64,000 bases of DNA from an uncultured Elusimicrobia bacterium (GCA_964537395.1 CAZIBN010000007.1:2843-66842), one strand, 5' to 3'; shown: positions 3,847 to 27,110, counted from the first letter of the stretch. The notes: generated by a model from the sequence alone, not told the origin. Numbers and translations are program-made.

Positions 3847-4253
3847 ATCGCCTGCCGACCGTCCTTTTTGTGTGCATCGAGAACTCCTGCCGGTCCCAGA
3901 TGGCCGAGGGCTTCGCCCGGCGCCACGGCGCGGGAAAGGTCGCGGCCTGGAGCTCGGGCTCGCGGCCCAGCGGAAAGGTCAACGAGACGGCGATCGCGCT
4001 CATGGAGGAGAAGGGCGTGGACATGTCCTCGCACCGCTCCAAGGGCCTGGCCGAGCTCCCGGCCCAGAAGTGGGACTATGTGATCACCATGGGCTGCGGC
4101 GACGCCTGCCCCTTCGTGCCCTCGCGGGGCAAGGAGGACTGGGCGATCCCCGATCCCAAGCATCTGTCCCCCGATGAGTTCCGCAAGGTCCGCGACCTGG
4201 TCGAGAGCAAGGTCAAGGATCTCATCGCGCGGGCCGTCAAGGCGGGCGCATGA
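3843..4253 (+). CDS. arsC: arsenate reductase, LMW-PTP/thioredoxin-coupled type
   Basis: Carries the CX5R P-loop ([17 protein letters not shown]). The ATG at 3843 overlaps the arsR stop (ATGA). Confidence 0.85.
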
Positions 4254-5281
4254 CCGGCGCCAAGCTGTCGTTTCTGGACCGATACCTCACGGGCTGGATC
4301 TTCGGTGCGATGGCTTTGGGCGTGGGGCTGGGCTATTTCCTTCCGGGGGTGCCGGCTTTCGTCAATCGCTTCCAGATCGGGACGACGAACATCCCGATCG
4401 CGATCGGCCTCATCCTGATGATGTATCCGCCGCTGGCCAAGGTGCGCTATGAGGAGCTCGGCGAGGTGTTCCGGGATAAGAAGGTCCTGACGCTCTCTCT
4501 CGTGCAGAACTGGTTCGTCGGCCCCGTCCTGATGTTCGTCCTGGCCGTGGTTTTTCTGCGCGGCTATCCCGAATACATGGTGGGCCTGATCATGATCGGC
4601 CTGGCGCGCTGCATCGCCATGGTCATCGTCTGGAACGAGCTCGCCGAGGGAGACAGCCAATACGCGGCGGGGCTTGTGGCCTTGAACAGCGTGTTCCAGG
4701 TCCTCTTCTACAGCCTCTACGCCTGGTTCTTCATCACGATATTGCTTCCGATGGTCGGGCAGTCCGGCTCCGTGGTCGACGTCGGCGTCGGAGACATCGC
4801 ACGGAGCGTGTTCATCTATCTGGGCGTTCCTTTCCTGGCCGGGATGGCGACGCGGTGGGCGCTGCTGCGTTCGAAGGGGAAAGAGTGGTACGAGTCCGTC
4901 TTCATCCCGCGCGTCAGCCCGCTGACCTTGCTGTCTCTGCTCTTCACCATCGTGGTCATGTTCAGCCTCAAGGGCAAGCTCATCGTGAGCCTTCCCCTTG
5001 ATGTCCTGCGCATCGCGCTGCCGCTTCTGATCTATTTCGCGGTGATGTTCCTCCTCAGCTTCTGGATGGGGCGCAAGGCGGGGGCGGATTACTCAAGGAC
5101 GGCGACCCTCGCTTTCACCGCCGCCGGCAACAATTTCGAGCTGGCCATCGCTGTGGCCGTGGCCGTGTTCGGCATCGACTCCGGGCAGGCCTTCGCCGCG
5201 GTCATAGGCCCGCTGGTCGAGGTGCCGGCCCTCATCCTGCTGGTGGACGCATCCTTGTTCTTTAAAAAACGTTTCTTCTGA
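4250..5281 (+). CDS. acr3: ACR3-family arsenite efflux permease
   Basis: 10-TM protein, [22 protein letters not shown]..., typical ACR3 length of 343 aa. The ATG overlaps the arsC stop. Confidence 0.85.
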
Positions 5282-5288
5282 GCTCGCT

Positions 5289-6002
5289 TCAGGCGAAGAT
5301 GAGCTTAAAGCCGGCGATGGCGAGGACGACGGCCAGCAGGCGCTTGATCGCGGCATGCGGCAGACGCGTGCTGCCGAGGTAGGAGCCCGCGGCCCCTCCG
5401 GCCAGCGCGGCAAGGGCGAGCGGCCAGGCGACGTTCGGAATGGAGCCGGTCTTGCTGAGATAGCCGGCCAGCCCTGACATGGAATTGACGAGGATGAACG
5501 CGGCGGAGACCGCGGCGATCGTTTTCGTGCCGTCCCATCTCAGGAATATCCCGAGCGGCGTGAGGAAGATTCCGCCACCGGTGCCGGTCAGCCCGGAGAG
5601 CAGGCCGAGCCCCGCCCCGACGCCGAGCGACACGGGCAGCGCCGGAGGCTTCGACGCCGGCTCCGCCGGAGGGTCGAGGAGAAAGCGCGCGGCGGAGGCC
5701 AGCAGGACCAGGCCGACGGCGATCTTGAAGGCCCGGGTAGGGAGGTTGAGCCAGCCGCCGAGGAACGCGCAGGGCACGGAGGCCAGCGCGAGCGGCCAGA
5801 ACAGCTTCCAGGAAAAGTGGCCGGCGCGCCGGAACTGCCACGAGGCGATCGTCGCGACGAGGATGTTGAGCGCCAGCGCCGTCGGCTTGACGATATCGGG
5901 CGCCAGGCCGAACAAGGTCATCACGGCGATATAGCCGGACGCTCCCGCGTGTCCCACGCACGAATAAAGAAAAGCGACGGCAAACACCGCGATGGCCAGC
6001 AA
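5289..6002 (-). CDS. TauE/SafE (DUF81, TSUP) family anion exporter
   Basis: Two-repeat 8-TM protein with glycine-rich loops (GLTGTGGGIFLTPL). Confidence 0.7.
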   Translation of the reverse strand: MLAIAVFAVAFLYSCVGHAGASGYIAVMTLFGLAPDIVKPTALALNILVATIASWQFRRAGHFSWKLFWPLALASVPCAFLGGWLNLPTRAFKIAVGLVLLASAARFLLDPPAEPASKPPALPVSLGVGAGLGLLSGLTGTGGGIFLTPLGIFLRWDGTKTIAAVSAAFILVNSMSGLAGYLSKTGSIPNVAWPLALAALAGGAAGSYLGSTRLPHAAIKRLLAVVLAIAGFKLIFA

Positions 6003-6005
6003 GAT

Positions 6006-6404
6006 CTATAAACGCGCGGACCAGCTGTTCGGGTCGAGCATCTCCCGGACCATCGTCACGAGGGCATCCATGTCCATCGGCTTGCGGAGGAAGCGCACGC
6101 GCGGCTCGGGGGGGATCTGGCTGGCGAAGCGCACGGCCTCCGTGCCGCTGATGAACAGCACCGGGAGCAGATTCGTTTCCTGCCGGGCGCGCAGGTCGGC
6201 GAGCAGCTGGACGCCGGTCTTGCGCGGCATCTGATAGTCGAGGATCGCGAGATCGGGATTCTCCTCGAGCGCGATGCGTTCGGCGGCCAACGGGTCGTGG
6301 CAGACGATGACGTCGTGGCCCTCGCCCGCGAGGCATTCCCGCAGGACTGCGGTCAGGGCCTCTTCATCGTCGACCACGAGTATCTTTGCCATCAGGTAGA
6401 GCAT
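6006..6404 (-). CDS. single-domain response regulator (CheY-like receiver)
   Basis: KILVVDDEEALTAVLRECLAGEGHDV...LAILDYQMPRKTG. An SD-like AAGAGG lies 5 nt upstream of the ATG at 6404. The ORF track extends to 6626, but that extension has no SD. Confidence 0.75.
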   Translation of the reverse strand: MLYLMAKILVVDDEEALTAVLRECLAGEGHDVIVCHDPLAAERIALEENPDLAILDYQMPRKTGVQLLADLRARQETNLLPVLFISGTEAVRFASQIPPEPRVRFLRKPMDMDALVTMVREMLDPNSWSARL

Positions 6405-9711: not shown

Positions 9712-11181
9712 ATGTTCGAGAGCGCGGAAGTCGGCCGTTCGGTGGAGAAGAAGGAGTACGAGAAGCGCGTCGCGGTCCTGCGCACTCGCATTCTCAAGGC
9801 TCAGCAGGCCCTGGCCGTCACAAGCCTGCGGCTTGTCGTCGTCGTGGGCGGCGTCGAGGGCGGAGGCAAGACCGAGGTCGCGCGCCGCTTCCTCGATTGG
9901 ATGGATCCGCGCGGCCTGAGCGTCGAGGCCTACGGAGAGCCTTCCAACGAGGAGGACGAGCGGCCCGAGTACTGGCGCTACTGGCGCACCTTGCCCTCCG
10001 GTGGACGCGGGGCGGTGCTGGTGGGCTCGTGGTACACCCGGCCCATCGTTCGCCGCACCTTCAAGGAGATCGGCTCCGGCGACTTCGATCAGGCGCTCGA
10101 TCGGGCGATGGCCTTCGAGGCCATGCTGGTCCGCGAGCAGACCGTGCTGGTGAAGCTGTGGCTTCACCTGTCCAAGAAGGGCCAGAAGCGCCGCTTCAAG
10201 GAGCTCGAGTCCGACCGCGACACCGCGTGGCGCGTGACCAAGCAGGATTGGGAGTTCTCCAAGAAATACGACCGCTTCCGAGAGGTGTGCGAGAGGGCGC
10301 TGACCAAGACCAGCGTCGCCCACGCGCCGTGGACGGTGATCGAGGCGACCGACCACCGTCATCGCGATCTGGCCGCGGGCGAGGCGGTGCTGGCGGCGCT
10401 CGAGGCCGCGCTCAAGCCGTCCTCGGCGCCGGCCGCCAAGCCCGTGCCGGACCGCGCGAAGCCGCCGAAGATCTCGATCCTCAGCCGTCTCGACCTGACC
10501 CAGCGGCTCGAGGAGGAGGATTCGAAGAAATTCCAAAAACAGCAGACGCGCGTGGCGCTCCTGTCGCGGCGCCTGCGCAAGGAGGGGCGCTCCCTTATCT
10601 GCGCCTTCGAGGGCGTGGACGCCGCGGGCAAGGGCGGCGCCATCCGCCGGCTGCTCTCCGCCATCGATGTCCGTAATGCGCGGGTCATGGCCGTGGCCGC
10701 GCCCACGGACGAGGAGCGCGAGCACCCGTACCTGTGGCGGTTCTGGCGCAACCTTCCGCGCCTGGGTCGTGCCACGATCTACGACCGCAGCTGGTACGGA
10801 CGCGTGCTCGTCGAGCGCGTCGAGGGCTTTTGCCCGGCGGAGGATTGGAAGCGCGCCTACTCCGAGATCGTGGACTTCGAGTCCGAGCTGGCCGAGGCCG
10901 GGACCATCGTCTGCAAGTTCTGGCTGCAGATCTCGCCCGAGGAGCAGCTGAAGCGCTTCAAGGAACGGGTCAAGACCCCGTTCAAGCACTACAAGATCAC
11001 CGAGGACGATTGGCGCAACCGCGGCAAGTGGGACGCCTATCAGGCCGCGGCCGTCGACCTGATCGAGAAGACGAGCACGCCCGACGCGTCCTGGACGCTC
11101 ATCGAGGCCGAGGACAAGCGATGGGCGCGGTTGAAGGTCATGAAGACCGTGGCGGATCGTCTCGAGGAAGAGCTGGGTTGA
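9712..11181 (+). CDS. ppk2: two-domain polyphosphate kinase 2 (polyP:AMP phosphotransferase type)
   Basis: Tandem PPK2 domains with Walker-A-like GVEGGGKT and FEGVDAAGKGG. Conserved EYWRYWRTLP and YLWRFWRNLP follow each. Confidence 0.85.
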   Translation: MFESAEVGRSVEKKEYEKRVAVLRTRILKAQQALAVTSLRLVVVVGGVEGGGKTEVARRFLDWMDPRGLSVEAYGEPSNEEDERPEYWRYWRTLPSGGRGAVLVGSWYTRPIVRRTFKEIGSGDFDQALDRAMAFEAMLVREQTVLVKLWLHLSKKGQKRRFKELESDRDTAWRVTKQDWEFSKKYDRFREVCERALTKTSVAHAPWTVIEATDHRHRDLAAGEAVLAALEAALKPSSAPAAKPVPDRAKPPKISILSRLDLTQRLEEEDSKKFQKQQTRVALLSRRLRKEGRSLICAFEGVDAAGKGGAIRRLLSAIDVRNARVMAVAAPTDEEREHPYLWRFWRNLPRLGRATIYDRSWYGRVLVERVEGFCPAEDWKRAYSEIVDFESELAEAGTIVCKFWLQISPEEQLKRFKERVKTPFKHYKITEDDWRNRGKWDAYQAAAVDLIEKTSTPDASWTLIEAEDKRWARLKVMKTVADRLEEELG

Positions 11182-13172
11182 GGATCGGCATCGGGCTGGG
11201 CACGGGTAAAGATCCCGCCAAGGCCGCGCGCGACGCGGTGCGTCAGGCCAAGAAGGCCGTGCCGCGACCTTCGCTAGCGCTCGTTTTTGCCGGTGTGAAG
11301 TTGGACCAAAAAAAGGTCCACGCGGCGCTGTGCCGCGTCCTCGACCCGGCCATTCTCATCGGTGGTTCCTCCTACGCCGAGATCACGCCTGCGGGCGTGA
11401 GCAAAAATTCCGTGGCGGTGCTCCTGCTCGACTACCCTCAGGCGGGCTTCGCCTTCGCGGGCTCGTGCATCGGCAAGGATCCCGCCGGCGCCGGAGAAAG
11501 GATGGCGGATGCTCTGGGGCCGCCGCCGAAACGCTGCCAGCTGGGGCTGGTGCTCTCCGGCGTCAGCGACGGACGCGACGATCGTCTGCTGCGCAAGCTT
11601 CACGAGCGGTTTCCGGGCATGCCGTTTTTCGGCGGGGTGCCTTCGGGCGACCACGACGCGGGCATGGAGAGCCCGCTGTTCTCGAAGGGCTGGCAGTACG
11701 TCGGGTCGAAGCTCGAAACCGAGGCCGCGAGCCTGACGATGATCGACCTGCCCTCGGACGTCGGCCTTGGCTTCGGCTTCGAGCATGGCTGGAGCCCGGT
11801 CGGGCCGCTGGCGCGTGTGACCAAGGCGGATGGAGCCCGTGTCATGGAGGTCGATGGCATACCCGCGATCGACTATTACCGGCAGTTCTTCGGCGCCGAC
11901 GCCTCGCGCGAGGTGATGCTCCGTTCCATCCAGCGCTTCGGCTTCGCGTTGCATCTTGAGGGGGAGTATGCCGGAAAGACCTTGATGAAGCTTCCCGTGC
12001 GAATGGATTTCAAGAAGGGCTGGATCGAGTACTATCCGCCCGAAGATCTGCAGGGCCGCCGGGTCCAGCTCATCGCGGCCAGCCGTCAGGGGCTTATCGG
12101 GGGCGCGCGTGAGGCCGCGCGGCGCGCGCTCAATGCGCTCAAGGGCCGCAAGCCCTCGCTCGTGCTCGCCGTCTCCTGCTGCACGCGCTCGTCGTGGCTC
12201 AACAGCCGCATCGACCTCGAGATGGACGCGGCGCGCGAGGTCTTCGGTCGGAACACCCCATTCTTCGGCTTCTACTCGGGCGGCGAGCTTCTTCCATTCC
12301 TGAGCAGCTTCGAGGAGGCCTCCGACGCGTCGCTGCCGTTTGGCGGCTCGTTCTATCATACGACCACGGTCGGCTTCATGGCCTTATCGGTCCCGGGCCG
12401 GGCGAAGGTGTCGGTTCCCAAGGATCTGCCTGCCGCCTGCCGCGCCGCCCAGACCCCGGAATACATGCTCGCGCGCAGCGAGACCGCCATCGACGATACC
12501 GAGTCCTTCATGGCCAATCTCAGCCGCAAGAGCGTCGAAGACGCCGCTAAGCTGCGCCTGCAGACCGAGGTCATCCGCCGCTACACGCCTCACAACGTCT
12601 GGAAGGCGGTCGGCGCGCGCGCGGCCAAGGGCGTGTACGAGCTTCCCGACGCCGCCTTCGACGGCGCCTTTCTATTCATGGACGTGAAGGGCTTCACCTC
12701 CTATTCCGAGAAGCACGCGCCGCGACAGGTCGTGGCCGCGCTCAACAAGATACTCGGCCCGGCCGCCGACCTGATCCACGCCAACGGCGGCGACGTGGAC
12801 AAGTTCGTCGGCGACTGTATCTTCGCCGCCTTCCGCAGGCCTGAGAGGGCCGTGGAGGCCGGACGCCGGATCCTCGATCTGGTCTCGCGCTTGGCCGCCG
12901 AAGGCGGCCCGTTCTCCGTGCGCATCGGCATCAACGCCGGCCGCGCCGTGCGCGCCAACGTGGGCTCCGGCGACCGCCGCGAGTACACCTACATCGGCGA
13001 CGCGGTCAACCTGGCCCAGCGCCTGGAGTCGAACGCGACTCCGGGGACCATGCTCGTCTCGGCGTCGGTGTACGTGCGCGTGAAGAAGAAGTGGCCGTGC
13101 CTCACGCGCAAGAAGCTGCTGGTGAAGGGCAAGAAGAAGGCCGTGACGGCCTACGAGCTTGTGGCCCGCTAG
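11178..13172 (+). CDS. FIST-domain sensor fused to a class III adenylate/guanylate cyclase catalytic domain
   Basis: N-terminal FIST_N/FIST_C (SLALVFAGV...SLVLAVSCCTRSSW). C-terminal cyclase motifs FLFMDVKGFTS, KFVGDCIFAAF, VRIGINAGRAV and YTYIGDAVNLAQRLES. A TTG at 11178 overlaps the ppk2 stop (TTGA) and follows an SD-like GAGGAAGAG. Confidence 0.75.
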   Translation: MRIGIGLGTGKDPAKAARDAVRQAKKAVPRPSLALVFAGVKLDQKKVHAALCRVLDPAILIGGSSYAEITPAGVSKNSVAVLLLDYPQAGFAFAGSCIGKDPAGAGERMADALGPPPKRCQLGLVLSGVSDGRDDRLLRKLHERFPGMPFFGGVPSGDHDAGMESPLFSKGWQYVGSKLETEAASLTMIDLPSDVGLGFGFEHGWSPVGPLARVTKADGARVMEVDGIPAIDYYRQFFGADASREVMLRSIQRFGFALHLEGEYAGKTLMKLPVRMDFKKGWIEYYPPEDLQGRRVQLIAASRQGLIGGAREAARRALNALKGRKPSLVLAVSCCTRSSWLNSRIDLEMDAAREVFGRNTPFFGFYSGGELLPFLSSFEEASDASLPFGGSFYHTTTVGFMALSVPGRAKVSVPKDLPAACRAAQTPEYMLARSETAIDDTESFMANLSRKSVEDAAKLRLQTEVIRRYTPHNVWKAVGARAAKGVYELPDAAFDGAFLFMDVKGFTSYSEKHAPRQVVAALNKILGPAADLIHANGGDVDKFVGDCIFAAFRRPERAVEAGRRILDLVSRLAAEGGPFSVRIGINAGRAVRANVGSGDRREYTYIGDAVNLAQRLESNATPGTMLVSASVYVRVKKKWPCLTRKKLLVKGKKKAVTAYELVAR

Positions 13173-16016: not shown

Positions 16017-19000
16017 CTATTGTGTCTTCAGCCAGCGAGCGAGCTTGAGGTAGACGAGCGCGACGCCGGTGTAGAAGGCGGCGAACATCCAGAAGGTCGC
16101 TGTGCCGAAGCCAGCGAACAAGCCGCCCCACAGCAGGAAGCCCGCGACGAAGCTCAGGTAGGTCAAGGTTCGGATCGCGCCGAGGATGCTGCCCGCGAGC
16201 GCCTTGTCCTCCTTGGGGATGCGGTCCTTCATGATGGTGTCGAGGTGGATGATCGCCATCTGGCTCGTGAAGCCGATCAGGAGCAGGAGCGGGGAGATCG
16301 GGAAGATCGGCCATACGAAGGTGAACAGCACGGTCTGGCTGACGAAGGCCCAGGAGCCGAGCATCGCGGCCGCGGTCCAGATCAGGGACTTGGCCGCGCT
16401 CTTTGCGTATAGCTTGCGGCCCGCGTCATCGCGCTCAGCCTCGGGCAGCAGCGCGGTCTTCTTATCGATGAGGCGGCTAAGGCGGTCCATCGCGAGCGCG
16501 CCGAACAGCGCTCCCACGCCGTAGAGGCCGGTCAGCGATCCCGCGACGGCGGCCGCGTGCTTCGGATCGCCGGCGACGTAGGCGCCGAAGGCCGTGGCGA
16601 TGATGTAGTACATCATGTACAGGAAGCTGGAAAGAAGGATGTATCCTAAAAGGGGCTTGGCGATGCCGGGGTTCTTGAACACGCCACGGAAGCCCGCGCC
16701 CCAGCCCGCTTTCTTCGCCTCGACGGCCGCGGCCGGCGTGGCCTTGGGCAGCTTGAGCAGGAAGGCCAGGCCCGCCGCGATCGCGAAGGCGACGGGCGCG
16801 GGGTAGATCACCGCGCCGAAGCCGAATGCGGCGATGGCGAGGCCCATCGCCGAGGCGACGAACACGGTCCCGTACTCGATGAAGTCACGGAAGGAGCCGA
16901 AGCGGCTCGACGAGGTCGGCTTGTCGTGGAACCAGGCGACCTGGAGCTTGTGCTCGGCGACGCGGCCGATCGAGTGGAAGAAGTAGTCGAGGCTGAACAG
17001 GCCGATGAGTGCTGCGAGCGGCAAGGTGCCGGTCAGCGGGTTGAACAGCAAGGCGATCGTGATCCAGATGCCGGTGCGCACGGTGAGGACGGTGCGGTAG
17101 GTGCGGCTGATGCCGAACTTATCCACCCAGCGGCCGCCGAACAGCGCGCCGGCGGTGTAGGCGAGGTAGCTCACGACGGTCAGGCCCGCGAGCGCCAGGA
17201 AGCCCTGGGTCAGCGGCTGGGTCATTTGGGAAACGGCGAGCGAGGTCGACTCGACGACGGTCGAGACGAGCACGAAGGTCGAGAGGAAGCCGAGCACGAC
17301 CTTAGAGAAGAGCCCAGGTGCAGGCGTCGGCGCGGCTTCCGCCGCAGGCGGAAGCTGCGACGACGGGGACTGCGTCTTCAGTTCCGGTACGAGGTCCTGA
17401 GCAGTCGGCTGCTGATAGTCGCCGCGCGCGCGCACGATCTCGCCGTTGTCGCGCTTGATCTTCAGGACCAGGCGGCGCGAGGCCAGGAGCGCGGAGCGGA
17501 TCGCGTCGCGCCAGGTCTTGCCCTTGCCGATGATCTCCGCCCACTCTTCATAGGCGTTGCCCTTGGCCGCGACGATGCGGTCGCCCGCCTCGACGAACAC
17601 TCGCGCGAGCTCGACGCCGGGAACCTTGCGCGCGGCCTCGAGGCCTTCGACGGACTCGAGCGTGCCGTTGCGGCTGGAGGCGAGGAAGGTGTAATGGATG
17701 ACGCCGTCGGGCGTGTGCCCGGGGTCGACCTTCAGGCCGAGTATGGAGCGCAGTCCTTGTTCCACGAGACTCATGCCGGTCAGGCTCTTCACTGCCTGCC
17801 AGATCGCGACGCCGCCCATGAAGGGATTGATCTCGATGACGCGCGGGCCGTCGGGGGTGGAGAACAGGTCGAGGCGCGCGTTGCCGTCTTTGAGGCCGAG
17901 CGCCTTGAGGGCGCGCTCGGAGGCGGCGATGAGCTCAGCGTGGTCCGCGACGGCCGTCTGTCCGGGGAACACGAGAATGCCGCCGGCGAGCTCGCCCTTC
18001 TGCCCTAGGCCCTTGGTATCGGAGACGATCGCGAAGGCGGCCTTGCCGTCCTGCATGACGACCTCGACGGAGGTCTCCTCGGTGCCCGGGTTCTTCTCGA
18101 GCATGCGCTCCATCATGAGGCCCGGGTGCGTGCTGAAGGTGGTCTGCCTGGCTTCGGGGCGGGCGACGAAGTCGCGCACGGCCGCGTCCATCTTGAGGTA
18201 GGCGGCGGCGGCCTCGTTCTCGGACTTGATGTTTAGGTCGAGGAAGCGGCTGTTCTCGCCGCGGCTGGTCTTGATCATGACCTTGTACTTGCCTTCCTCG
18301 GAGATCTCGTGGTACGCCTGGCGCGCCTCCTTCTCGCTTCCGATCACCGCGTACGCGACGTGCTGGCTCGCGTCCACGTTGAGGCGCTTGCGTGCCTCCG
18401 GCTTGTTGTCGGCCGCGGCGACGACATCGCCGGCGATGCCTTTTGCGCCGAGCTTGTCGGTGATCCTGCCGGTCAGGCTCGCGTACAGGCTCATGAAGCC
18501 GACGACCGCGTGCGCCTTCGCGCCTTCGGGGTGCGCGGCGACGGTCTCCGCGATCTTGCCCATCGTCTTGCCGTCGCGGGTGTTGATGGGCGCGGCGATG
18601 AAATTCGAGTCCGGAATGCTGTCGATGGAATTCTTGCGGTTCGCGGGATCGTCCACGAGCACGAGGTTGAGCCCGAGCTCCTTGGCGACGCGCAGAGCTT
18701 CCTGCATGATGAACGGGCGCGAGCCCTTCGTGCCGACCATGACGACGGTCTTGCCGCGAACCGCCGCTTCCGCCGCGGCCGCGGGAGAGAGCGCGATGAC
18801 GGACGCAGGCTGTGCCGAGGCGGGAGAAGGGCTCGCGGGCTCCGGCAGCGCCGAGGCGGCCGGGAGGATCGGGGCCTGTGCGGCGATCGCGGCCGGAACG
18901 GAGGCGCGTTCGAGAGGAACCGGCGCGCCCGAGGCCTGCAACGAAGGAGCGGACAGCGAGCCGAACGAAGGAGAGAGGAGCGATATGACGGATACGTTCG

Positions 19001-19151
19001 CGGCCGGTGCCGCGACGGCGCCCGCGGCCGAAGAGGCGGACGAGACGGGCGCGATGACGCGGGCGGTCTGCGCCCATGCCGGCCAGGGCGCGAGCACGAC
19101 GACGAACGAAACGACGAGGGACGCAACGGAGCGAAGCGCGCGTGATTTCAT
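16017..19151 (-). CDS. fusion protein: N-terminal signal-like hydrophobic segment + Ala/Ser/Pro linker + ATP-grasp ligase domain + C-terminal 12-TM MFS transporter
   Basis: N-terminus MKSRALRSVASLVVSFVVVLAPWPAWAQTA. ATP-grasp motifs: KYKVMIKTSRGENSRFLDL, EVVMQDGKAAFAIV, RLDLFSTPDGPRVIEINPFMGG. The last ~430 aa are 12 TM, MFS-like. An extended -10-like TGCTAACAT lies 8 nt upstream of the ATG at 19151. Confidence 0.7.
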   Translation of the reverse strand: MKSRALRSVASLVVSFVVVLAPWPAWAQTARVIAPVSSASSAAGAVAAPAANVSVISLLSPSFGSLSAPSLQASGAPVPLERASVPAAIAAQAPILPAASALPEPASPSPASAQPASVIALSPAAAAEAAVRGKTVVMVGTKGSRPFIMQEALRVAKELGLNLVLVDDPANRKNSIDSIPDSNFIAAPINTRDGKTMGKIAETVAAHPEGAKAHAVVGFMSLYASLTGRITDKLGAKGIAGDVVAAADNKPEARKRLNVDASQHVAYAVIGSEKEARQAYHEISEEGKYKVMIKTSRGENSRFLDLNIKSENEAAAAYLKMDAAVRDFVARPEARQTTFSTHPGLMMERMLEKNPGTEETSVEVVMQDGKAAFAIVSDTKGLGQKGELAGGILVFPGQTAVADHAELIAASERALKALGLKDGNARLDLFSTPDGPRVIEINPFMGGVAIWQAVKSLTGMSLVEQGLRSILGLKVDPGHTPDGVIHYTFLASSRNGTLESVEGLEAARKVPGVELARVFVEAGDRIVAAKGNAYEEWAEIIGKGKTWRDAIRSALLASRRLVLKIKRDNGEIVRARGDYQQPTAQDLVPELKTQSPSSQLPPAAEAAPTPAPGLFSKVVLGFLSTFVLVSTVVESTSLAVSQMTQPLTQGFLALAGLTVVSYLAYTAGALFGGRWVDKFGISRTYRTVLTVRTGIWITIALLFNPLTGTLPLAALIGLFSLDYFFHSIGRVAEHKLQVAWFHDKPTSSSRFGSFRDFIEYGTVFVASAMGLAIAAFGFGAVIYPAPVAFAIAAGLAFLLKLPKATPAAAVEAKKAGWGAGFRGVFKNPGIAKPLLGYILLSSFLYMMYYIIATAFGAYVAGDPKHAAAVAGSLTGLYGVGALFGALAMDRLSRLIDKKTALLPEAERDDAGRKLYAKSAAKSLIWTAAAMLGSWAFVSQTVLFTFVWPIFPISPLLLLIGFTSQMAIIHLDTIMKDRIPKEDKALAGSILGAIRTLTYLSFVAGFLLWGGLFAGFGTATFWMFAAFYTGVALVYLKLARWLKTQ

Positions 19152-19285
19152 TGAGTGTGATGTTAGCACGCGGTAACCGCGCACGTTGTCAAAATTGGTC
19201 CCACTCGGGGGAGGCAATCGCACTACCTTTACAGTGGGACCTTCGACTCTCGATGGTGGGTCCAAGGTCCCCGCGCCGGAAGAAA

Positions 19286-20152
19286 ATGATACGATGCGCC
19301 ATGCGAAAAAATGCATTTTTCTGCTTGGTGCTCATCGCCATGTGCATCTCCGCGACGGCGGCCGCGCCGTCGAAAGCTCCCGTCGTTCCCGACGCGCTGA
19401 TCGTCCGAGCCGTCTCCTGGGACTATTCCTGGAAGCCTTCGACGGACAAGGAGTGGGATGCTCGCGTCATCAGCGAGGTCGCCGCCGCCGCCAAGGCCGG
19501 GGCCGACGTCATCGTATTCCCGGAGCAGTTCTCGAACGGGCGCAGCCTCGAGGGCGTACTCTCCAGCGTCAGGGATGCCGCTGGCGCCGAGCGCCTCGTA
19601 GTTCTCGGCAACGCGCCGTATCAGGAGGCGGGCTGGGATCATGTCGTCAGCCGCGCCTATGTTCTCTCCGGCGGCTCCTGGCAGGTGATGGATAAGGTCG
19701 ACCCCACTCCGGCCGAGCGCGCGCAGAAGCCGCCGGTGAAGCCCGGCACGCGCTTCCCTCTGTTCCGCTTCCGCGGCGCGGTGGTCGCGGTACTTCCGGC
19801 GTTCTCGATCGAGAAGCCCGAGATCGCCGCTTCCATGAAGAAGCGCGCGGTCCAGCTCGTGCTCGTCTCCGCGCCCGCCGAGGACGAGGAAGGCTCGGCT
19901 CGCGTCTTGCGCGCCGCCTCCGCCCGCGCGGTCGAGCTCGGCGCCGCGGTCGTGGTCGCGACTCCGTCCTCCGCGGCACCCTCGCTCCATCTGCCCGCGC
20001 AAAAGGGATTCGAACTCAAGCCTCAGGCGCCCAAGGGGCGCGACTTCCGTCTTCCCTGGAAGAAGATCCTCGATCTGCGCGCCCAGCCCGACGGTAAGGG
20101 CGAAGCGCGCCCCTTCCTCGATCCGGCGCCGTACTACCAGATCGAGATTTAG
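19286..20152 (+). CDS. secreted carbon-nitrogen hydrolase (nitrilase/Lnt-like) homologue lacking the catalytic Cys (probable pseudo-enzyme)
   Basis: Signal peptide MIRCAMRKNAFFCLVLIAMCISATAAA. The Glu motif DVIVFPEQF is present and a Lys region (VMDKVDP) is present. At the ICYE position the sequence reads LPAF. SD GGAAG precedes the start. Confidence 0.5.
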   Translation: MIRCAMRKNAFFCLVLIAMCISATAAAPSKAPVVPDALIVRAVSWDYSWKPSTDKEWDARVISEVAAAAKAGADVIVFPEQFSNGRSLEGVLSSVRDAAGAERLVVLGNAPYQEAGWDHVVSRAYVLSGGSWQVMDKVDPTPAERAQKPPVKPGTRFPLFRFRGAVVAVLPAFSIEKPEIAASMKKRAVQLVLVSAPAEDEEGSARVLRAASARAVELGAAVVVATPSSAAPSLHLPAQKGFELKPQAPKGRDFRLPWKKILDLRAQPDGKGEARPFLDPAPYYQIEI

Positions 20153-20231: not shown

Positions 20232-20780
20232 ATGGGAATCCTCTCGCTGCTCTTCGTCGCGTTCCTGTCCGCGCCCGCGTTCGCGGGCGAGCGCATGACG
20301 GTGCGCGATGCCGGCGGCTTCGATCCTTCGGGCCGGACCGTGGAATTCCCGGACCGCTTCGGCTGGCGCGGCTACGAGGCTGAGTTCTCGTTTTCGTTCG
20401 GTGAGGATGGGAAAGTGTCGGGCGCCTCACGGCTCAATATCGTGATCCTGCGTCGCGGCGGGGGGAAATGGAAGTACTCGTGCCGCGCTTCGAGCGACGA
20501 TCTCGCGTCTCGCGTCGTGCCTCTTGGCGGACGGATCTCCGTGATCGCCGAGTGCCGGGTCAAGCCGAAGGCTTTCGCTAAAGCCGTCGATCTCGACGCC
20601 GAGGACGTCGGCGCGCCTGTATTCGTCTTCGAGGCCGTCATCGAGAACGGCCAGGCGCGCGCAGGCGGCCAGCGCGGGCTGCGCTTCCGGCCCGATTCTC
20701 CGGTGGCGTCTTTGGACCTGAGCCCATTCGCGGCGTCTCCCGACGCCGCCGGCCTGGCCGTCCTATTTCGCGCAGACTGA
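20232..20780 (+). CDS. small secreted hypothetical protein (182 aa)
   Basis: Signal peptide MGILSLLFVAFLSAPAFAGE. No recognisable domain. Confidence 0.5.
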   Translation: MGILSLLFVAFLSAPAFAGERMTVRDAGGFDPSGRTVEFPDRFGWRGYEAEFSFSFGEDGKVSGASRLNIVILRRGGGKWKYSCRASSDDLASRVVPLGGRISVIAECRVKPKAFAKAVDLDAEDVGAPVFVFEAVIENGQARAGGQRGLRFRPDSPVASLDLSPFAASPDAAGLAVLFRAD

Positions 20781-20942
20781 AGCTGGTCGGTGGTCCTCTA
20801 ATAGGATGCTAGGACCCCTCAGGCCTAATTAGGCGTAGGCCGTTTGTCTGGGCCCCGCTTACCCATCTGCACCAGTCCCTTTCCCGGAAGTTCCTCTATA
20901 ATTCAGCAACGCCGCAGGTCGTTCTATTTAGAGGAGCCGATA

Positions 20943-23900
20943 ATGATCATCGAGAGAACCGTCGCGAAGAAGTCCCTGGCCGTGACCCTGGCCCTGGCCC
21001 TTTTCGCTTCCGCGCCGATGAGCGCCTGGTCTCAGACCCAGTCCGCAGCGGCCCGCGCGGGAAATAGCGCCGGAATCATCGGCGCCGTTGGCACGATGGG
21101 CACCATGACCCCGAATATGTCGGCGGTAATGGCTCCGGTGACGCTCCCTAGCCTTTCTCTGAACTCTCCGGCCCTCGTAGTCGCCCCCGCGGTGAAGGCG
21201 ATGGCCGCGGCCCCGATCGCTTCGGCGCAGGCGATGCCTGCCGCGGCCATGCCCCTCGCCGTCGAGGCGCACCCGGTGATCGGCCTCATCAACGCTTTGC
21301 AGGCCAAGGGCATCGTTCTGCCCGAGACGATGTCTTCGCGTGAGGACGCAGCTAAACTGATCGTCGCGGCCCAGGCCATGCCCGAGGGCTCGGCCAAGCA
21401 GAACATGATCACGATGGCCGCCGCCATCAACGCCGCGAACAGCTCCGGCTCTTCTGCCGAGCTGGGCAAGATCTGGGACGCCGAGAAGGCTCGCGCCGAA
21501 GCTCCCGAAGCGGCGCCCGTCCAGGCCGGCGGCTGGCGCTCGGTCGTTACGCGCCTGCTCCCCGCTCCGCTCGCGAAGATGGTCGCGAAGAAAGCCTCTG
21601 ACCCTGTTTCGCCGGCGAAGCCGGCAGATCCTGAGGACTACGCGGTGAAGATCGCGGACCTGCACTACGCGCCCTCGGTCGCGCAGCTCCCGGAGAACAC
21701 CTCCGCTATCCCCGTGTCGGACAACCAGGTCGTGGGCCAGGACGCCGCTCTGAAGGCGATCCGGTTCGGCCTGCAGATGCCCGGCCGCCACTACAACCTC
21801 TTCGTCGCCGGCCCGGACGGCTCCGGCCGCGAGACGGCCCTGCGCCACATGCTCCCCGACGTGGCCGCGAAGATGGCGACCCCCGGCGACCGCGTCGCCG
21901 TGACGAATTTCAAGGACAAGGAAAATCCGCTCGTGCTCGAGCTCGCGACGGGCCGCGCCCCGGCGTTCGTGAAGGGCGTGCGCAATTTCGTGGCGACGCT
22001 CAAGTCCTATCTGCCTCAGGTCCTCGGATCGGGCAAGATCGGCGAAGCAAAGAAGCAGATCGTCGCGCAGATCCAGGAAGCCGGTGCTCAGCGCGAGGAG
22101 GCTTTCCAGGCCGAGGTCAAGGCGATCACGCTCGCCGGCGGCCTTTTCACCGTCGAGTTCTTCGCGAAGCCTTCCGGCGAGGGCCGCATGATGGTCGGCC
22201 TCAAGCTCATGCGCAATGGCCAGGCCGTCGATCCCGCCAACATGGACGCGGACATCGCCGCCGGGGCCTACACCCGCGAGCAGATCGAAGCGGCCATGAA
22301 GGAGCGGGACCAGAAATTCCCCGGCGTCATGGAGAAGTTCAAGGCCATGATGGAGCAGAACAACAAGGAGATGGAGGCCGCCCAGGAGCAGATCGGCAAG
22401 ATGGAGACGCAGGCCGTCGCTTCCATCATCAACCAGGCCGGCGCGCCGCTGATGGAGGCGGTCATGCCTGAGGCCAAGGCGACCCCCGAGATGGCCGCGC
22501 TGCAGGCGAAGATCGATGCGTGGTCCGCCGATTTCGAGGCGCGCGTCTCCGCCGTCAACGTCGACGGCTTCGGCATCGCCTTCATCCAGAACGGCAGCAA
22601 GCTCCAGGTCGCCTACACGCACGGCGGCGAGGCTCTGAGCCAGCAGAAGGTCGAAGCGCTCATGAAGGCCGGCCTGACCCCGGCCAAGTTCAAGCAGATC
22701 CAGGAAGCTCTCGGCGCGGCCGTCGAGCCCCTGCTCACCGAGTTCAAGGCGAAGAACCAGGAGTTCGGCGCCGCGCAGCAGGCGCTGGCCAAGAGCCAGC
22801 CCAAGACAACCGCCACGCCGGAGCAGCTCAAGGCCGCCTCCTACGTGAAGGCGCTGATGAACTTCTCGGCGTCCAACTACCAGATCTTCATGGGCAAGAT
22901 CGCCACGCCGGCCGATGAGGACGGCGAGGAAGGGATCAAGGACGCCCCCGGGCAGAAGGCGATGGACGCCCAGGACTTCTTCGAGGCCAGCGTCCTCTCC
23001 AGCAACGGCGGCAAGACGGGCGCCCCGGTGGTCTGGGTCAAGAATCCGTCCCTCGACAAGGTCTTCGGCAAGGCCGACGACAACAAGCGCACGATGATCA
23101 TCCCGGGCGTGGGCCTCGTCAAGGGCGGCGCCCCGGGCGGCCCGACCTTGATCGGCGGCGCGATCCAGCAGGCCGAGGGCGGCTTCCTCGTGCTCGATTT
23201 CATGGACGTGCTGCGCGCTCCGGGCCTGTACCAGGCGTTGATGGCCGCCGTGAAGACCGGCGACGCGTCGATGGTCGAGGGCGGAATCCAGGGCCTGATG
23301 AACGGCAAGGGCGAGGCGTATCACGTCCCGAGCAAGGTCAAGGTCGTGCTGATCGGCTCTCCGAGCCTGCGCATGATGGTGGAGCGCCAGGACCAGGACT
23401 TCGCGATGAACTTTCAGGCGTCCGCCGACTTCCAGTCCACGCTCAAGGTCGGCGAGGAGTCGGTGGCCGGCTACGTGCAGTTCTTCAAGAAGGCCGTGCT
23501 GACGCTCGCCCGAGAGCTCAAGCAGGACGCGACGAACCTGACGCAGGACGCGATGAGCGCCCTCGTCGAGCAGGGCGCGCGCATGGCCGACTCCAATAAG
23601 AAGCTGACCGCGCAGTTTGGCGCGCTGTACAGCGTCGTCCGCGAGGCCACCTATTGGGCGCACGAGGCGGGCCGCAACGAGGTCCGCCGTGAGGACGTGG
23701 ACACCGCGATGCAGACCAAGCAGGATCGCGAGGAGGTCTATCGCCAGCACATGCTTCAGACCTATAAGGACAACGTGTTCGTCGTGGAGACGACCGGCAA
23801 GAAGGTCGGCCAGATCAACGGCCTGGCCGTCATGGGCACCTTCGGCGTGCCGATGCGCATCACCGTGGTGCCTTCCGCCGCGGCGGGCATGGGCGGGATC

Positions 23901-24458
23901 ATCTCGGTGGACCGCAACGCCGGCCCGAACCAGACCGGCTCGTCCTTCAACAAGGCGCTGGGCATCGTCGAGGGCTTCCTCCAGAACCTGTTCGCGCAGA
24001 AGCGGCCGTTTCCGGCGCGCCTCTCGATTTCCTATGAACAGAACTACGGCGGCATCGACGGCGACTCGGCGACCTCGACGGAGATCTACTCGATCCTGTC
24101 GGCGCTCTCGGGTGTTCCGATCGGCCAGAACTTCGCCGTGACCGGCTCGGCCGACCAGTTCGGCAACGTGCAGGCTATCGGCGGCGTGAACCACAAGATC
24201 GAGGGCTTCTACGAGCTCGCGAAGGCTCGCGGCCTGACGGGCGATCAGGGCATCGTGATCCCGCAGGCGAACGTGGCTGACCTCCAGCTCTCGCTCGAGG
24301 TGGTGGAGGCCGTGAAGGCCGGCAAGTTCCACATCTACGCCGTCAGCCACGTCAGCCAGGGCCTCGAGATCCTGACCGGCGTCGCCTACTCGGAGATCCT
24401 CGCCAAGTCGCGCGCGAACCTGGCGCAGATGGGCAAGCCGGAAGCCAAGAAGAACTGA
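20943..24458 (+). CDS. Lon-like protease (COG1067/LonC-like AAA-like module + Lon_C proteolytic domain), 1171 aa, with N-terminal signal peptide and Ala/Met-rich extension
   Basis: GAGGAG SD 6 nt before the ATG. Signal-like MIIERTVAKKSLAVTLALALFASAPMSAWSQ. AAA-like segment NLFVAGPDGSGRETALRHML, a degenerate Walker A with R in place of K. Lon_C Ser-Lys dyad region GGIDGDSATSTEIYSILSAL...GGVNHKIEG. Confidence 0.7.
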   Translation: MIIERTVAKKSLAVTLALALFASAPMSAWSQTQSAAARAGNSAGIIGAVGTMGTMTPNMSAVMAPVTLPSLSLNSPALVVAPAVKAMAAAPIASAQAMPAAAMPLAVEAHPVIGLINALQAKGIVLPETMSSREDAAKLIVAAQAMPEGSAKQNMITMAAAINAANSSGSSAELGKIWDAEKARAEAPEAAPVQAGGWRSVVTRLLPAPLAKMVAKKASDPVSPAKPADPEDYAVKIADLHYAPSVAQLPENTSAIPVSDNQVVGQDAALKAIRFGLQMPGRHYNLFVAGPDGSGRETALRHMLPDVAAKMATPGDRVAVTNFKDKENPLVLELATGRAPAFVKGVRNFVATLKSYLPQVLGSGKIGEAKKQIVAQIQEAGAQREEAFQAEVKAITLAGGLFTVEFFAKPSGEGRMMVGLKLMRNGQAVDPANMDADIAAGAYTREQIEAAMKERDQKFPGVMEKFKAMMEQNNKEMEAAQEQIGKMETQAVASIINQAGAPLMEAVMPEAKATPEMAALQAKIDAWSADFEARVSAVNVDGFGIAFIQNGSKLQVAYTHGGEALSQQKVEALMKAGLTPAKFKQIQEALGAAVEPLLTEFKAKNQEFGAAQQALAKSQPKTTATPEQLKAASYVKALMNFSASNYQIFMGKIATPADEDGEEGIKDAPGQKAMDAQDFFEASVLSSNGGKTGAPVVWVKNPSLDKVFGKADDNKRTMIIPGVGLVKGGAPGGPTLIGGAIQQAEGGFLVLDFMDVLRAPGLYQALMAAVKTGDASMVEGGIQGLMNGKGEAYHVPSKVKVVLIGSPSLRMMVERQDQDFAMNFQASADFQSTLKVGEESVAGYVQFFKKAVLTLARELKQDATNLTQDAMSALVEQGARMADSNKKLTAQFGALYSVVREATYWAHEAGRNEVRREDVDTAMQTKQDREEVYRQHMLQTYKDNVFVVETTGKKVGQINGLAVMGTFGVPMRITVVPSAAAGMGGIISVDRNAGPNQTGSSFNKALGIVEGFLQNLFAQKRPFPARLSISYEQNYGGIDGDSATSTEIYSILSALSGVPIGQNFAVTGSADQFGNVQAIGGVNHKIEGFYELAKARGLTGDQGIVIPQANVADLQLSLEVVEAVKAGKFHIYAVSHVSQGLEILTGVAYSEILAKSRANLAQMGKPEAKKN

Positions 24459-25906: not shown

Positions 25907-26431
25907 CTAGTAAACGGCTTCCCAGTCGCGGTAGGTCACGCGGAACTCCACGCGCCGGTTCTTGGCGCGGCCCTCGTCGGTCGAGTTGTCCGCGATGGGC
26001 CTCGAGTAGCCCATGCCTTTGAAGCGGATCGTGGGCGGGTCGACTCCCTCCCTGACGAGAAAGCTCTTCACCGCGCGCGCGCGGCGCTCGCTGAGGTCCA
26101 GGTTGTACTCCGACGAGCCCACGCTGTCGGTGTGCGCCAGGCAGATGATCTTCAGGCGCGGATTCTTGATCAGGAGCTGTGCGACGAGGCTCAAGGTCGG
26201 ATCGGACTCGGGCGTGATCGCGTCCCGGTCGAACTCGAATTGGATCTTGGGCAAGGTGCCGGTCTCCACCTTCTTCTGGATGTCGGCCAGCGCTTCGCGC
26301 GCGCGGCGCTCCTCGGCGTCGTTGTCTCGGACGTAGGACTGGCGGTCGTCGTCGTTGATGAGGATGGTGGGGGGGCCCGCTTTGCACGCGCACAGGAGGC
26401 CGAGGACGGCGATGGCGAGGAGTTTATTCAC
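25907..26431 (-). CDS. OmpA-family (Pal-like) envelope protein
   Basis: Signal peptide ending in Cys. OmpA_C motifs LAHTDSVGSSEYNLDLSERRA and NRRVEFRV. The GTG start is chosen because any longer start would cover the tRNA. Confidence 0.7.
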   Translation of the reverse strand: MNKLLAIAVLGLLCACKAGPPTILINDDDRQSYVRDNDAEERRAREALADIQKKVETGTLPKIQFEFDRDAITPESDPTLSLVAQLLIKNPRLKIICLAHTDSVGSSEYNLDLSERRARAVKSFLVREGVDPPTIRFKGMGYSRPIADNSTDEGRAKNRRVEFRVTYRDWEAVY

Positions 26432-26509
26432 GAGGTTAGTGTACCCGCGCGCCGTGCCGCGCGCAAGGACGGAATTGTTAAGAGTGCTATAATCAGATCG
26501 CGGTCTTAC

Positions 26510-26582
26510 CGGGGCGTAGCTCAATTGGCAGAGCGCATGGTTTGGGACCATGAGGTTCCCGGTTCGAGACCGGGCGCCCCGA
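26510..26582 (+). tRNA. tRNA-Pro (anticodon TGG)
   Basis: Cloverleaf folded by hand: acceptor CGGGGCG/CGCCCCG, D-arm GCTC-AATTGGCA-GAGC, anticodon stem CATGG/CCATG with loop TTTGGGA, T-arm CCCGG-TTCGAGA-CCGGG, discriminator A, no encoded CCA. Confidence 0.85.
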
Positions 26583-26633
26583 GACCGCCCCGGTATTGAC
26601 GGCCCGTGCCAATCCGCTATCCTTATTGGGCGC

Positions 26634-27110
26634 ATGAAAACCGTTCTTGCCCTCGCCCTCCTGTTCCTGACCTTCCCGGCCGCGGCCCGCCGCGCAGATC
26701 GGGTCGATGCCGACTTCAAGAAGATCGATCAGCTGATCGAAAGGGGCGAGTACACGAGAGCCCGGGATGCGCTTGACGACGTGCTGGCCGAGCTCAGGCC
26801 GGGGGATCCTCGTCTGGTGCGCTATCACGAGCGCGTCGGGGCCGCCTGGCTGCGCGAGGGAGATATCTCCATGGCGCGATCATCCTTCACGTCTGCGCTC
26901 AAGGTGATCCAGCGTCTGAAGGTCTCCGACGACGCCGCCGCGAGAGCCTACGCCGGCATGGGCCTGTGCCTGAGGCGTGAGGAGAACGACAGCTACGCCC
27001 TCAAGTTCTTCAAGAGGGCGCTTGGCTTCAAGCTCGACGAGGGTACCAGGATGTTCGTGGAGGACCAGATCCGCGAGATCGAAGGCCTTCCGCCCGTTCC
27101 CGCCCGCTAG
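26634..27110 (+). CDS. secreted TPR-like protein
   Basis: Signal peptide MKTVLALALLFLTFPAAA followed by a helical TPR-like repeat region. Confidence 0.5.
   Translation: MKTVLALALLFLTFPAAARRADRVDADFKKIDQLIERGEYTRARDALDDVLAELRPGDPRLVRYHERVGAAWLREGDISMARSSFTSALKVIQRLKVSDDAAARAYAGMGLCLRREENDSYALKFFKRALGFKLDEGTRMFVEDQIREIEGLPPVPAR

Follow-up and report, generated by a model that had tools for sequence, protein, structure and literature searches.

The locus described here raises the question of whether a Lon-family protease that carries an AAA-like module can work outside the cytoplasm. It belongs to an uncultured Elusimicrobia bacterium (GCA_964537395.1) and was studied within a stretch of 64,000 nucleotides (CAZIBN010000007.1:2843-66842), hereafter the window, in which a plus-strand gene encodes a Lon-like protease of 1171 amino acids (aa) with a signal-like N-terminus. 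All characterised Lon-family fusions of an AAA module and a protease act in an ATP-containing compartment (PMC3391209, PMC13069640). No characterised Lon is known to have a secretion signal. Our literature search found no LonC or AAA-containing Lon described as bearing a signal peptide or as periplasmic, which is not proof of absence. A first-pass annotation of this DNA had suggested a Lon-like protease that works without ATP and is perhaps exported, and the proposal agrees with all the computed evidence given below. We consider the protein to be a Sec-exported, ATP-independent chambered protease of the LonC type, and possibly a chaperone, which would act in the periplasm; the probability of this reading is put at roughly 0.7.

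Identification of the protease as LonC

The protein is a LonC-subfamily Lon-like protease because its sequence matches, its fold match and the published LonC signatures all point the same way. Pfam matches were found to AAA_32 (residues 693-831, E 1.9e-17), LonB_AAA-LID (866-929, E 2.3e-17) and Lon_C (1038-1142), together with a LonC_helical match below threshold at 320-348; no Pfam match to LON_substr_bdg, the N-terminal domain of LonA, was obtained. Scores against the NCBIfam Lon equivalogs (LonB, sporulation LonB/LonC and LonA) were all well under the cut-offs, with 119.7 bits against a cut-off of 516.6 for TIGR00764 (LonB) and 34.2 bits against 608 for TIGR00763 (LonA). The closest PDB sequence by phmmer is LonC from Meiothermus taiwanensis (MtaLonC; 4fwd and related entries, E 1.5e-66), and the alignment to 4fwd covers both sides of an insertion (query 262-394 with chain 28-152, query 683-1149 with chain 253-689). 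An AlphaFold2 (AF2) model of the monomer, built from 59 family sequences, has a mean pLDDT of 76, with values of 80-95 across most of residues 230-1165. Comparison of this model with the PDB by Foldseek placed the full-length MtaLonC structures from cryo-EM (8k91 and 8k8v) first, with E about 1e-42, TMt 0.72-0.73 and some 950 aligned columns; MtaLonC crystal structures came next, then TonLonB, then LonA. The combination of a LonC-like AAA module with Lon_C reported in the first-pass annotation is thereby borne out.

The proteolytic site appears complete. The Ser-Lys dyad recognised earlier in DGDSAT and NHKIEG is present, and together with the preceding Asp and the substrate-loop region it is invariant across the whole clade. 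Ser1042 and Lys1085 are 43 residues apart, the spacing of S582 and K625 in MtaLonC. The protease domain of LonC is defined by two insertions, CX3GLX(G/E) and phi-X2-A-phi (Liao et al. 2012, PMC3391209), and both have counterparts here (Table 1).

MtaLonC and Thermus thermophilus TTC1975 (LonC, MEROPS S16; PDB 4fwd, 4fw9, 7euy, 8k8v, 8k91) are the nearest known system. Besides the dyad spacing and both insertions, the window protein shares with MtaLonC a non-canonical Walker B and a P-loop-bearing AAA-like module that is split by a helical-hairpin extension (HHE) and followed by a lid and the S16 protease domain. Unlike MtaLonC, it has a cleavable-type signal peptide, a mature N-terminal extension of about 200 aa, a doubled HHE, Arg rather than Lys in the P-loop and no Cys, and it belongs to a clade restricted to Elusimicrobiota among named members. 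LonC has been described as soluble, cytoplasmic and without an N-terminal domain (PMC13069640), whereas 229 residues, signal peptide included, precede the LonC core here; the lack of such a domain describes the LonC enzymes studied so far and is not a phylogenetic criterion. The second-best structural and sequence relative is archaeal LonB (Thermococcus onnurineus TonLonB, PDB 3k1j; TIGR00764), which has the same Pfam order (AAA_32, LonB_AAA-LID, Lon_C) and whose AAA module is interrupted at the equivalent point. LonB differs in having functional Walker motifs, transmembrane (TM) helices within that insertion and its body in the cytoplasm; the window protein has no internal TM segment, no hydrophobic stretch being found beyond residue 40, and its motifs are dead.

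Signal peptide and N-terminal extension

A phmmer search returned 4392 relatives at E<=1e-3, and a gap in score separates long forms resembling the window protein (above about 470 bits) from ordinary LonC of about 800 aa (from about 385 bits down). The best 150 representatives of the 4392 matches were surveyed for signal peptides. The signal-like segment noticed in the first-pass annotation is present in the window protein and is conserved, by its properties and by its cleavage-site rule, across diverged homologues. Residues 1-30 read MIIERTVAKKSLAVTLALALFASAPMSAWS, with Q at position 31. A rule-based check found the tripartite layout of a Sec/signal peptidase I substrate, with an n-region, an h-region and small residues at -3 and -1; neither a lipobox Cys nor a twin-Arg motif occurs in this segment. 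In a comparison of 50 long forms, position -3 is Ala in 46, position -1 is Ser, Ala or Gly in all 50, Gln follows the site in 43 and Pro stands at -6 in 45. All 49 close long forms have the basic n-region, the hydrophobic core, the Pro at -6 and the pattern A-x-[SAG] followed by Gln. Of the 37 diverged long forms, about 33 pass a simple threshold for a hydrophobic N-terminal segment, and another two look signal-like by eye; the sequences of these diverged forms differ much from that of the window protein while keeping the same order of n-, h- and c-regions. No such segment was seen in any of about 110 ordinary LonC representatives. These features suggest export via Sec, with signal peptidase I probably cleaving the protein after Ser30.

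The mature N-terminus had been described as an Ala/Met-rich region of about 240 aa. Such a region does exist (residues 31-229; Ala 25%, Pro 9%, Met 6%) and is rich in Ala, Pro and Ser; it is nearly uncharged, and its enrichment in Met is not conserved. Nor is it a single low-complexity block, since a small conserved domain of three helices lies between two disordered linkers. The composition of the first linker is kept family-wide, with Met at 9% here and 0-9% across the family, and we therefore dismissed the idea of a Met-rich region serving in Cu(I) binding or oxidant scavenging. The three-helix domain carries the motif AVEAHPVIGLINxLQAxGVxLPET...ADAAKL...LPEGSA, and its helices (111-121, 133-144 and 150-166) are modelled by AF2 with moderate confidence (pLDDT 61-73). 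No Pfam family corresponds to it; at E<=10 one chance match to PheRS_DBD1 was returned. A profile of the domain from 18 sequences, searched against a set of 5.8 billion sequences, recovered two short fragments only, and the parent family itself was not among the matches.

Is the N-terminal region translated? The reading frame runs through it without interruption in more than 50 homologues, and M1 is invariant in an alignment of 24 family members, nearly all homologues starting with MI[IV]E[KR]. The protease gene was compared with those of three homologous loci, L001, L003 and L005 (79%, 45% and 48% protein identity). Over residues 1-229 the differences are in excess at third codon positions and many changes are synonymous, in the signal peptide as well: identical residues there are encoded by different codons in 8 of 18 cases in L003 and in 9 of 15 in L005. 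Because of this third-position excess and the frequent synonymous changes, the region is taken to be translated, and the codon pattern indicates that it is under purifying selection. The earlier caveat that the N-terminal region might be untranslated does not hold, and the assigned length of 1171 aa and ATG start agree with the Shine-Dalgarno spacing and the invariant M1.

AAA-like module and predicted ATP independence

The first-pass annotation had called the P-loop degenerate, with Arg in place of the Walker A Lys. The P-loop does read GPDGSGRET, and realignment brought no Walker A Lys to light; the substitution is not peculiar to this protein, being the majority state of ordinary cytoplasmic LonC. 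Among the latter, the residue after GxxxxG could be scored in 97 representatives, of which 61 carry Arg and 36 carry Lys; GxxxxGR occurs also in P0059, P0062 and P0066. A unique degenerate Walker A was on these counts ruled out. Both enzymes that have been studied, MtaLonC and TTC1975, have Lys, the less common residue among ordinary LonC (representatives P0102-P0214). G290, G295 and R296 are invariant across the aligned long forms, and among 20 distant long-form representatives with a locatable motif the residue at the Arg296 position is Arg in 19 and Lys in one. At the Walker-B-like strand the Asp position varies (D/N/R/S) from one relative to another, and in none is the following residue Glu; the equivalent segment of MtaLonC is GYLILDA (PMC3391209).

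LonC lacks canonical ATPase motifs, having no Walker-B Glu and degenerate sensors; in the window protein they are missing at the P-loop and at Walker B, the two sites that were mapped individually. ATPase activity is absent from both MtaLonC and TTC1975 (PMC3391209), and the P-loop of MtaLonC binds only a phosphate ion as seen by cryo-EM (PMC13069640). From its own motifs and by analogy with these two enzymes, the window protein is predicted to be ATP-independent. The invariance of the Gly/Gly/Arg residues suggests that the loop has been preserved because it binds an anion or supports the structure. Neither ATP independence nor the degenerate P-loop is new here, as both are already established for LonC, whose ATP independence dates from work of 2012.

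Duplication of the helical-hairpin extension

The LonC-specific HHE insertion spans residues 339-655, about 316 aa, and is tandemly duplicated, a feature absent from the first-pass annotation. Profiles of the two units align with each other by hhalign over 120 columns (probability 99.4%, E 3.4e-21), and unit 1 is a homologue of the one insertion that ordinary LonC has (probability 96%). The HHE inside the AAA alpha/beta subdomain that typifies LonC is thus present in two copies. Ordinary LonC has one unit of about 172 residues (about 130-170 in the comparison with MtaLonC), with only about 34 residues falling in the columns of unit 2. The roughly 366 extra residues of the window protein relative to ordinary LonC are accounted for by the N-terminal extension (about 229) and one HHE unit (about 140). 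In MtaLonC the HHE forms a substrate-binding, chaperone-active 'basket' (PMC13069640).

Relatives and distribution

A search of 1.84 billion representatives yielded a distant set of 37 long forms of at least 980 aa. A neighbour-joining tree built on 477 columns of the shared core groups them in one clade, which nests with LonC; its sole other member, P0101 (747 aa), has no N-terminal extension and is probably truncated. Every long form with a source name comes from a metagenome-assembled genome of Elusimicrobiota, mostly from groundwater. Ordinary LonC was found in many bacterial and archaeal phyla. A scan of genome contigs gave, among the matches listed, one long form and 79 ordinary LonC loci from many phyla; these matches do not bound the taxonomic range of the long forms. 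Judged from the tree, the long forms are monophyletic, with a single origin, and they are restricted to Elusimicrobiota among named members. Two relatives within or near this clade have unusual insertions or extensions: P0103, a LonC-like protein of 1502 aa, has a long TM-like N-terminal segment, and P0052 (1208 aa) has an insertion of roughly 43 residues within the alpha5 LonC-specific insertion.

Proposed mode of action and alternatives

The mode of action that we infer starts from the LonC homology (sequence and predicted fold), the motif states, the HHE duplication, the conserved signal features and the monophyly of the long forms with their restriction to Elusimicrobiota among named members. 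Its conditional parts are that the protein is exported and cleaved, how many subunits it assembles, that it needs no ATP, what it degrades, and what HHE unit 2 and the N-terminal domain do. The organism is judged to be diderm from a nearby gene for a Pal-like OmpA_C lipoprotein, a point in favour of export. Sec export and a cut by signal peptidase I after Ser30 would release a mature protein of about 1140 aa, which may assemble in the periplasm into LonC-type rings, hexameric or heptameric. A dead AAA-like ring would then sit atop a proteolytic chamber with the Ser1042/Lys1085 dyad. As the periplasm is without ATP, the enzyme would have to work without it, as cytoplasmic LonC does. The doubled HHE basket may capture unfolded or misfolded envelope proteins, which would enter the chamber passively. 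The GxxGxGR loop would be retained as a structural or anion (phosphate) element, as in MtaLonC, and not as an ATPase site. The uncharged Ala/Pro linker and the three-helix domain would most likely serve as a tether or in recruiting a partner or substrate. Loss of ATP dependence would be ancestral to LonC and would have made the later export feasible.

Several points weigh against this proposal. The case for export is built on sequence rules and on how well they are conserved, and the signal-peptide survey covers the best 150 of 4392 matches. The AF2 model is monomeric, and that subunits with a doubled HHE form rings is an assumption taken over from MtaLonC. At the P-loop, the invariance of Gly/Gly/Arg marks a site under selection, where some ligand may bind. 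The proposal gives only a tentative role to about 200 residues of mature N-terminal extension, and no conserved operon partner or substrate emerged.

Four other explanations were considered. The protein might be an exported chaperone or holdase with a minor proteolytic role, its doubled HHE basket acting mainly as a periplasmic chaperone in the manner of the MtaLonC heptamer; we take this possibility seriously and consider it unlikely. The chaperone activity of MtaLonC is mediated by the HHE, and the heptamer is its chaperone form (PMC13069640); the duplication of the HHE in the window protein would fit such a role. The dyad, the Asp before it and the substrate-loop region are, however, invariant throughout the clade, which argues for continued proteolysis, and the two activities are not mutually exclusive.

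An uncleaved signal anchor is improbable. It would hold the protease at the periplasmic side of the inner membrane, with the Ala/Pro linker as a leash into the periplasm, and some 80 disordered, uncharged residues directly behind the hydrophobic segment do suit a tether. An extracytoplasmic Lon_C protease of Bacillus subtilis, YlbL/DdcP, is held in the membrane by an N-terminal TM anchor (PMC6051672). The same protein offers a precedent for the exported protease that we prefer, having an S16 Lon proteolytic domain that works outside the cytoplasm without ATP. YlbL, however, is about 340 aa long and has a PDZ domain and a TM anchor with neither AAA-like module nor HHE, whereas the window protein keeps the entire LonC ring architecture, as known here from its sequence and the monomer model. 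The hydrophobic core of the latter is only about 11-14 residues long, too short for a stable TM helix; behind it come the conserved Pro at -6 and a near-invariant small-x-small site, and a pure anchor would not need this site.

A cytoplasmic LonC is quite unlikely. The N-terminus would in this case be an inner-membrane anchor with a cytoplasmic body, as in LonB and FtsH, or a non-functional or mis-annotated extension. The ATP-containing compartments of all characterised Lon-family AAA-protease fusions (PMC3391209, PMC13069640) and the conserved GxxGxGR loop speak for it. The charge bias speaks against it, with +2/+3 before the hydrophobic core and about +1 after it, which predicts an N-in/C-out orientation, as do the shortness of the core and the conserved cleavage-site rule. 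Translation and purifying selection of the N-terminal region, together with a conserved start codon and Shine-Dalgarno sequence, are at odds with a mis-annotated extension. Cys is depleted relative to cytoplasmic LonC, with 0-2 residues in long forms (none in the window protein) against 2-8 in ordinary LonC.

A role in defence, whether as a BrxL/BREX-type protease or as some other Lon-like effector against phage, has next to no credibility: the resemblance to BrxL proposed in the first-pass annotation extends only to a Lon_C-like domain combined with a P-loop NTPase-like domain, while the protein matched 0 PADLOC families at E<=1 (no BrxL model among them) and has a different best homologue, no BREX genes (PglZ, PglX, BrxC type; their absence had been noted earlier) or other defence genes occur in the window or at any of eight related loci, whose neighbouring genes have housekeeping or envelope functions, and the gene lies in chromosomal synteny conserved across the phylum and not on a mobile island.

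Gene features and genomic neighborhood

The coding sequence was confirmed as a real gene from the list of open reading frames (ORFs), in which its frame is open from 20844 to 24458 on the plus strand. No sigma-70 promoter was found by a scan upstream of it, and a terminator-like hairpin lies at 20822-20841, 3' of the upstream gene. An antisense ORF of 1140 aa (20928..24350, minus strand) spans almost the entire protease gene. It has no domain matches, every match being on the plus strand, and we rejected it as a gene; it is a shadow ORF of the kind typical for GC-rich coding sequence.

Table 1. Coordinates of the protease gene, its parts and the gene upstream. Positions are those of the window; residues are those of the 1171-aa protein.
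Feature	Position	Strand	Residues	Basis and remarks
Upstream gene, secreted protein of 182 aa with two invariant Cys	20232..20780	+		candidate partner, loosely linked to the protease gene
Shine-Dalgarno sequence AGAGGAG	20930..20936	+		6-nt spacer to ATG at 20943; read from the sequence
Coding sequence, predicted exported LonC-type protease	20943..24458	+	1-1171	stop included; ORF list, Pfam domains, >50 full-length homologues sharing the start
Predicted Sec-type signal peptide	20943..21032	+	1-30	n-region with R5/K9/K10, h-region LAVTLALALFA, Pro25 at -6; predicted signal peptidase I site A28-W-S30, before Q31
Linker 1, disordered, nearly uncharged	21033..21266	+	31-108	rich in Ala/Pro/Ser/Thr/Gly; pLDDT <50
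Small three-helix domain, conserved	21267..21440	+	about 109-166	alignments A1/A3 and AF2
Linker 2, disordered	21441..21629	+	167-229	low AF2 pLDDT
AAA-like alpha/beta subdomain, first part	21630..21956	+	230-338	aligns with MtaLonC 28 onward (phmmer, 4fwd); pLDDT 80-94
P-loop-like GPDGSGRET	21810..21836	+	290-298	Arg296 at Walker A Lys position, Glu297 at Ser/Thr position
HHE unit 1	21957..22478	+	339-512	long helices flank beta-hairpin pair 402-424 (AF2)
HHE unit 2	22479..22907	+	513-655	tandem duplicate of unit 1; beta-hairpin pair 543-560
AAA-like alpha/beta subdomain, second part	22908..23522	+	656-860	Pfam AAA_32 693-831
Walker-B-like strand GGFLVLDF	23178..23201	+	746-753	Asp752 then Phe, not catalytic Glu
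AAA lid subdomain	23538..23729	+	866-929	Pfam LonB_AAA-LID, E 2.3e-17
S16 Lon proteolytic domain	23790..24392	+	about 950-1150	Pfam Lon_C, LonB/LonC structure alignments
Catalytic Ser1042 in DGDSAT	24066..24068	+	1042	invariant in 59 sequences; aligns with MtaLonC S582
Catalytic Lys1085 in NHKIEG	24195..24197	+	1085	invariant in 59 sequences; same distance from Ser as K625 in MtaLonC
LonC-specific insertion 1, AKARGLTG	24219..24242	+	1093-1100	first position Ala here, Cys in most relatives
LonC-specific insertion 2, VVEAV	24300..24314	+	1120-1124	seen in alignment

Genes for a SpoU-type methylase, a fusion of an L-amino-acid-ligase domain with an MFS transporter, an MFS transporter and the convergent Pal-like OmpA_C lipoprotein recur around the protease gene. 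They look like phylum-level synteny and not an operon, and a conserved operon partner was rejected, as no gene adjoins the protease gene in all loci. The candidate partner is the 182-aa protein. Its family lies directly upstream of the LonC-like gene in the window, in L006 (47% identity) and in L008, is divergently adjacent to it in L088 and stands one gene away in L089; no homologue was found in L001, L003, L005 or L007. Members of the family (L006 5281-5838, L008 3273-3821, L088 5001-5543, L089 3431-3985, L090 5001-5549) have a signal peptide and are so far seen in Elusimicrobiota only; in L090 the gene adjoins one for an S8 protease. The protein is confidently modelled by AF2 as beta-rich (pLDDT 86), with no Pfam match and no Foldseek match in the PDB at E<=0.001. 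An ecotin-like inhibitor is unsupported by these searches.

Other extracytoplasmic proteases repeatedly occupy the same syntenic slot, of the PDZ-S41 (Tsp-like), S8 (subtilisin-like) and trypsin-like types. In L089 a PDZ-S41 protease gene (4097-6319) has been inserted immediately 5' of the LonC-like gene, S8 proteases are encoded in L003 (10290-12392) and L090 (5689-8229), and a trypsin-like protease in L005 (4620-5519). This suggests that the locus is rich in envelope proteases in Elusimicrobiota, and it counts in favour of export of the LonC-like protein.

Some further genes of the window were noted. The 270-aa ORF at 25907-26719 (minus strand) is over-extended; the real gene encodes the Pal-like OmpA_C lipoprotein of about 175 aa and starts near VNKLLAIAVLGLLCAC. 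A tRNA gene (26510-26582, plus strand; Rfam, 66 bits) lies on the opposite strand inside the spurious 5' part of this ORF. The Pal-like gene is convergent to the LonC-like gene also in L003, L005 and L007. At 16017-19316 (minus strand) an LAL_C2 (L-amino-acid-ligase-type) domain is fused to an MFS transporter, an unusual enzyme-transporter fusion of about 1030-1100 aa which recurs near the LonC-like gene in L001 (2590-5673), L003 (1795-4908), L088 (7040-10186) and L090 (735-3860). A protein of 812 aa with FIST N/C sensor domains and a class III adenylate/guanylate cyclase domain is encoded at 10734-13172 (plus strand). The carbon-nitrogen hydrolase homologue at 19076-20152 (plus strand) probably begins further inside this frame, at a Met that precedes a signal-peptide-like segment (MRKNAFFCLVLIAMCISATAAAP); near the LonC-like gene of P0025 there is a CN_hydrolase gene as well.

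Implications

AAA+-fold machines need ATP and are for this reason seen as devices of the cytoplasm or matrix, and proteolysis in the diderm envelope is credited to unrelated ATP-independent families such as HtrA and Tsp. We lean towards the view that the protein would be the first Lon-family ring protease with an AAA-fold, catalytically dead module to operate in the periplasm, as a phylum-specific envelope protease-chaperone analogous to DegP. DegP/HtrA is an ATP-independent, cage-forming periplasmic serine protease-chaperone, to which the likeness is one of proposed role, a functional analogy drawn from general knowledge; its fold (trypsin-like S1 with PDZ) is unrelated, and there is no homology. 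An ancestral LonC may have become independent of ATP while still in the cytoplasm, and so have been preadapted to export. In Elusimicrobiota it would then have gained its signal peptide, an N-terminal domain for tethering or recruitment, and a substrate basket of two tiers. The co-located secreted protein of 182 aa and the neighbouring S41 and S8 proteases are possible co-workers of the exported enzyme.

What is distinctive, as read from the sequence, is the conserved predicted export signal on a full Lon ring architecture, with the duplicated basket and the N-terminal domain. The practical significance is modest because ATP independence and the degenerate P-loop are already known for LonC, and YlbL/DdcP is a precedent for an exported S16 protease. 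If the proposal is true, the Lon chamber and its AAA-like ring could be redeployed beyond the cytoplasm once dependence on ATP is lost, and the long forms would offer a natural test of what a dead AAA ring and an HHE basket contribute without nucleotide. In a phylum that is little studied and mostly uncultivated, the protein would also be a candidate protease for quality control in the envelope.

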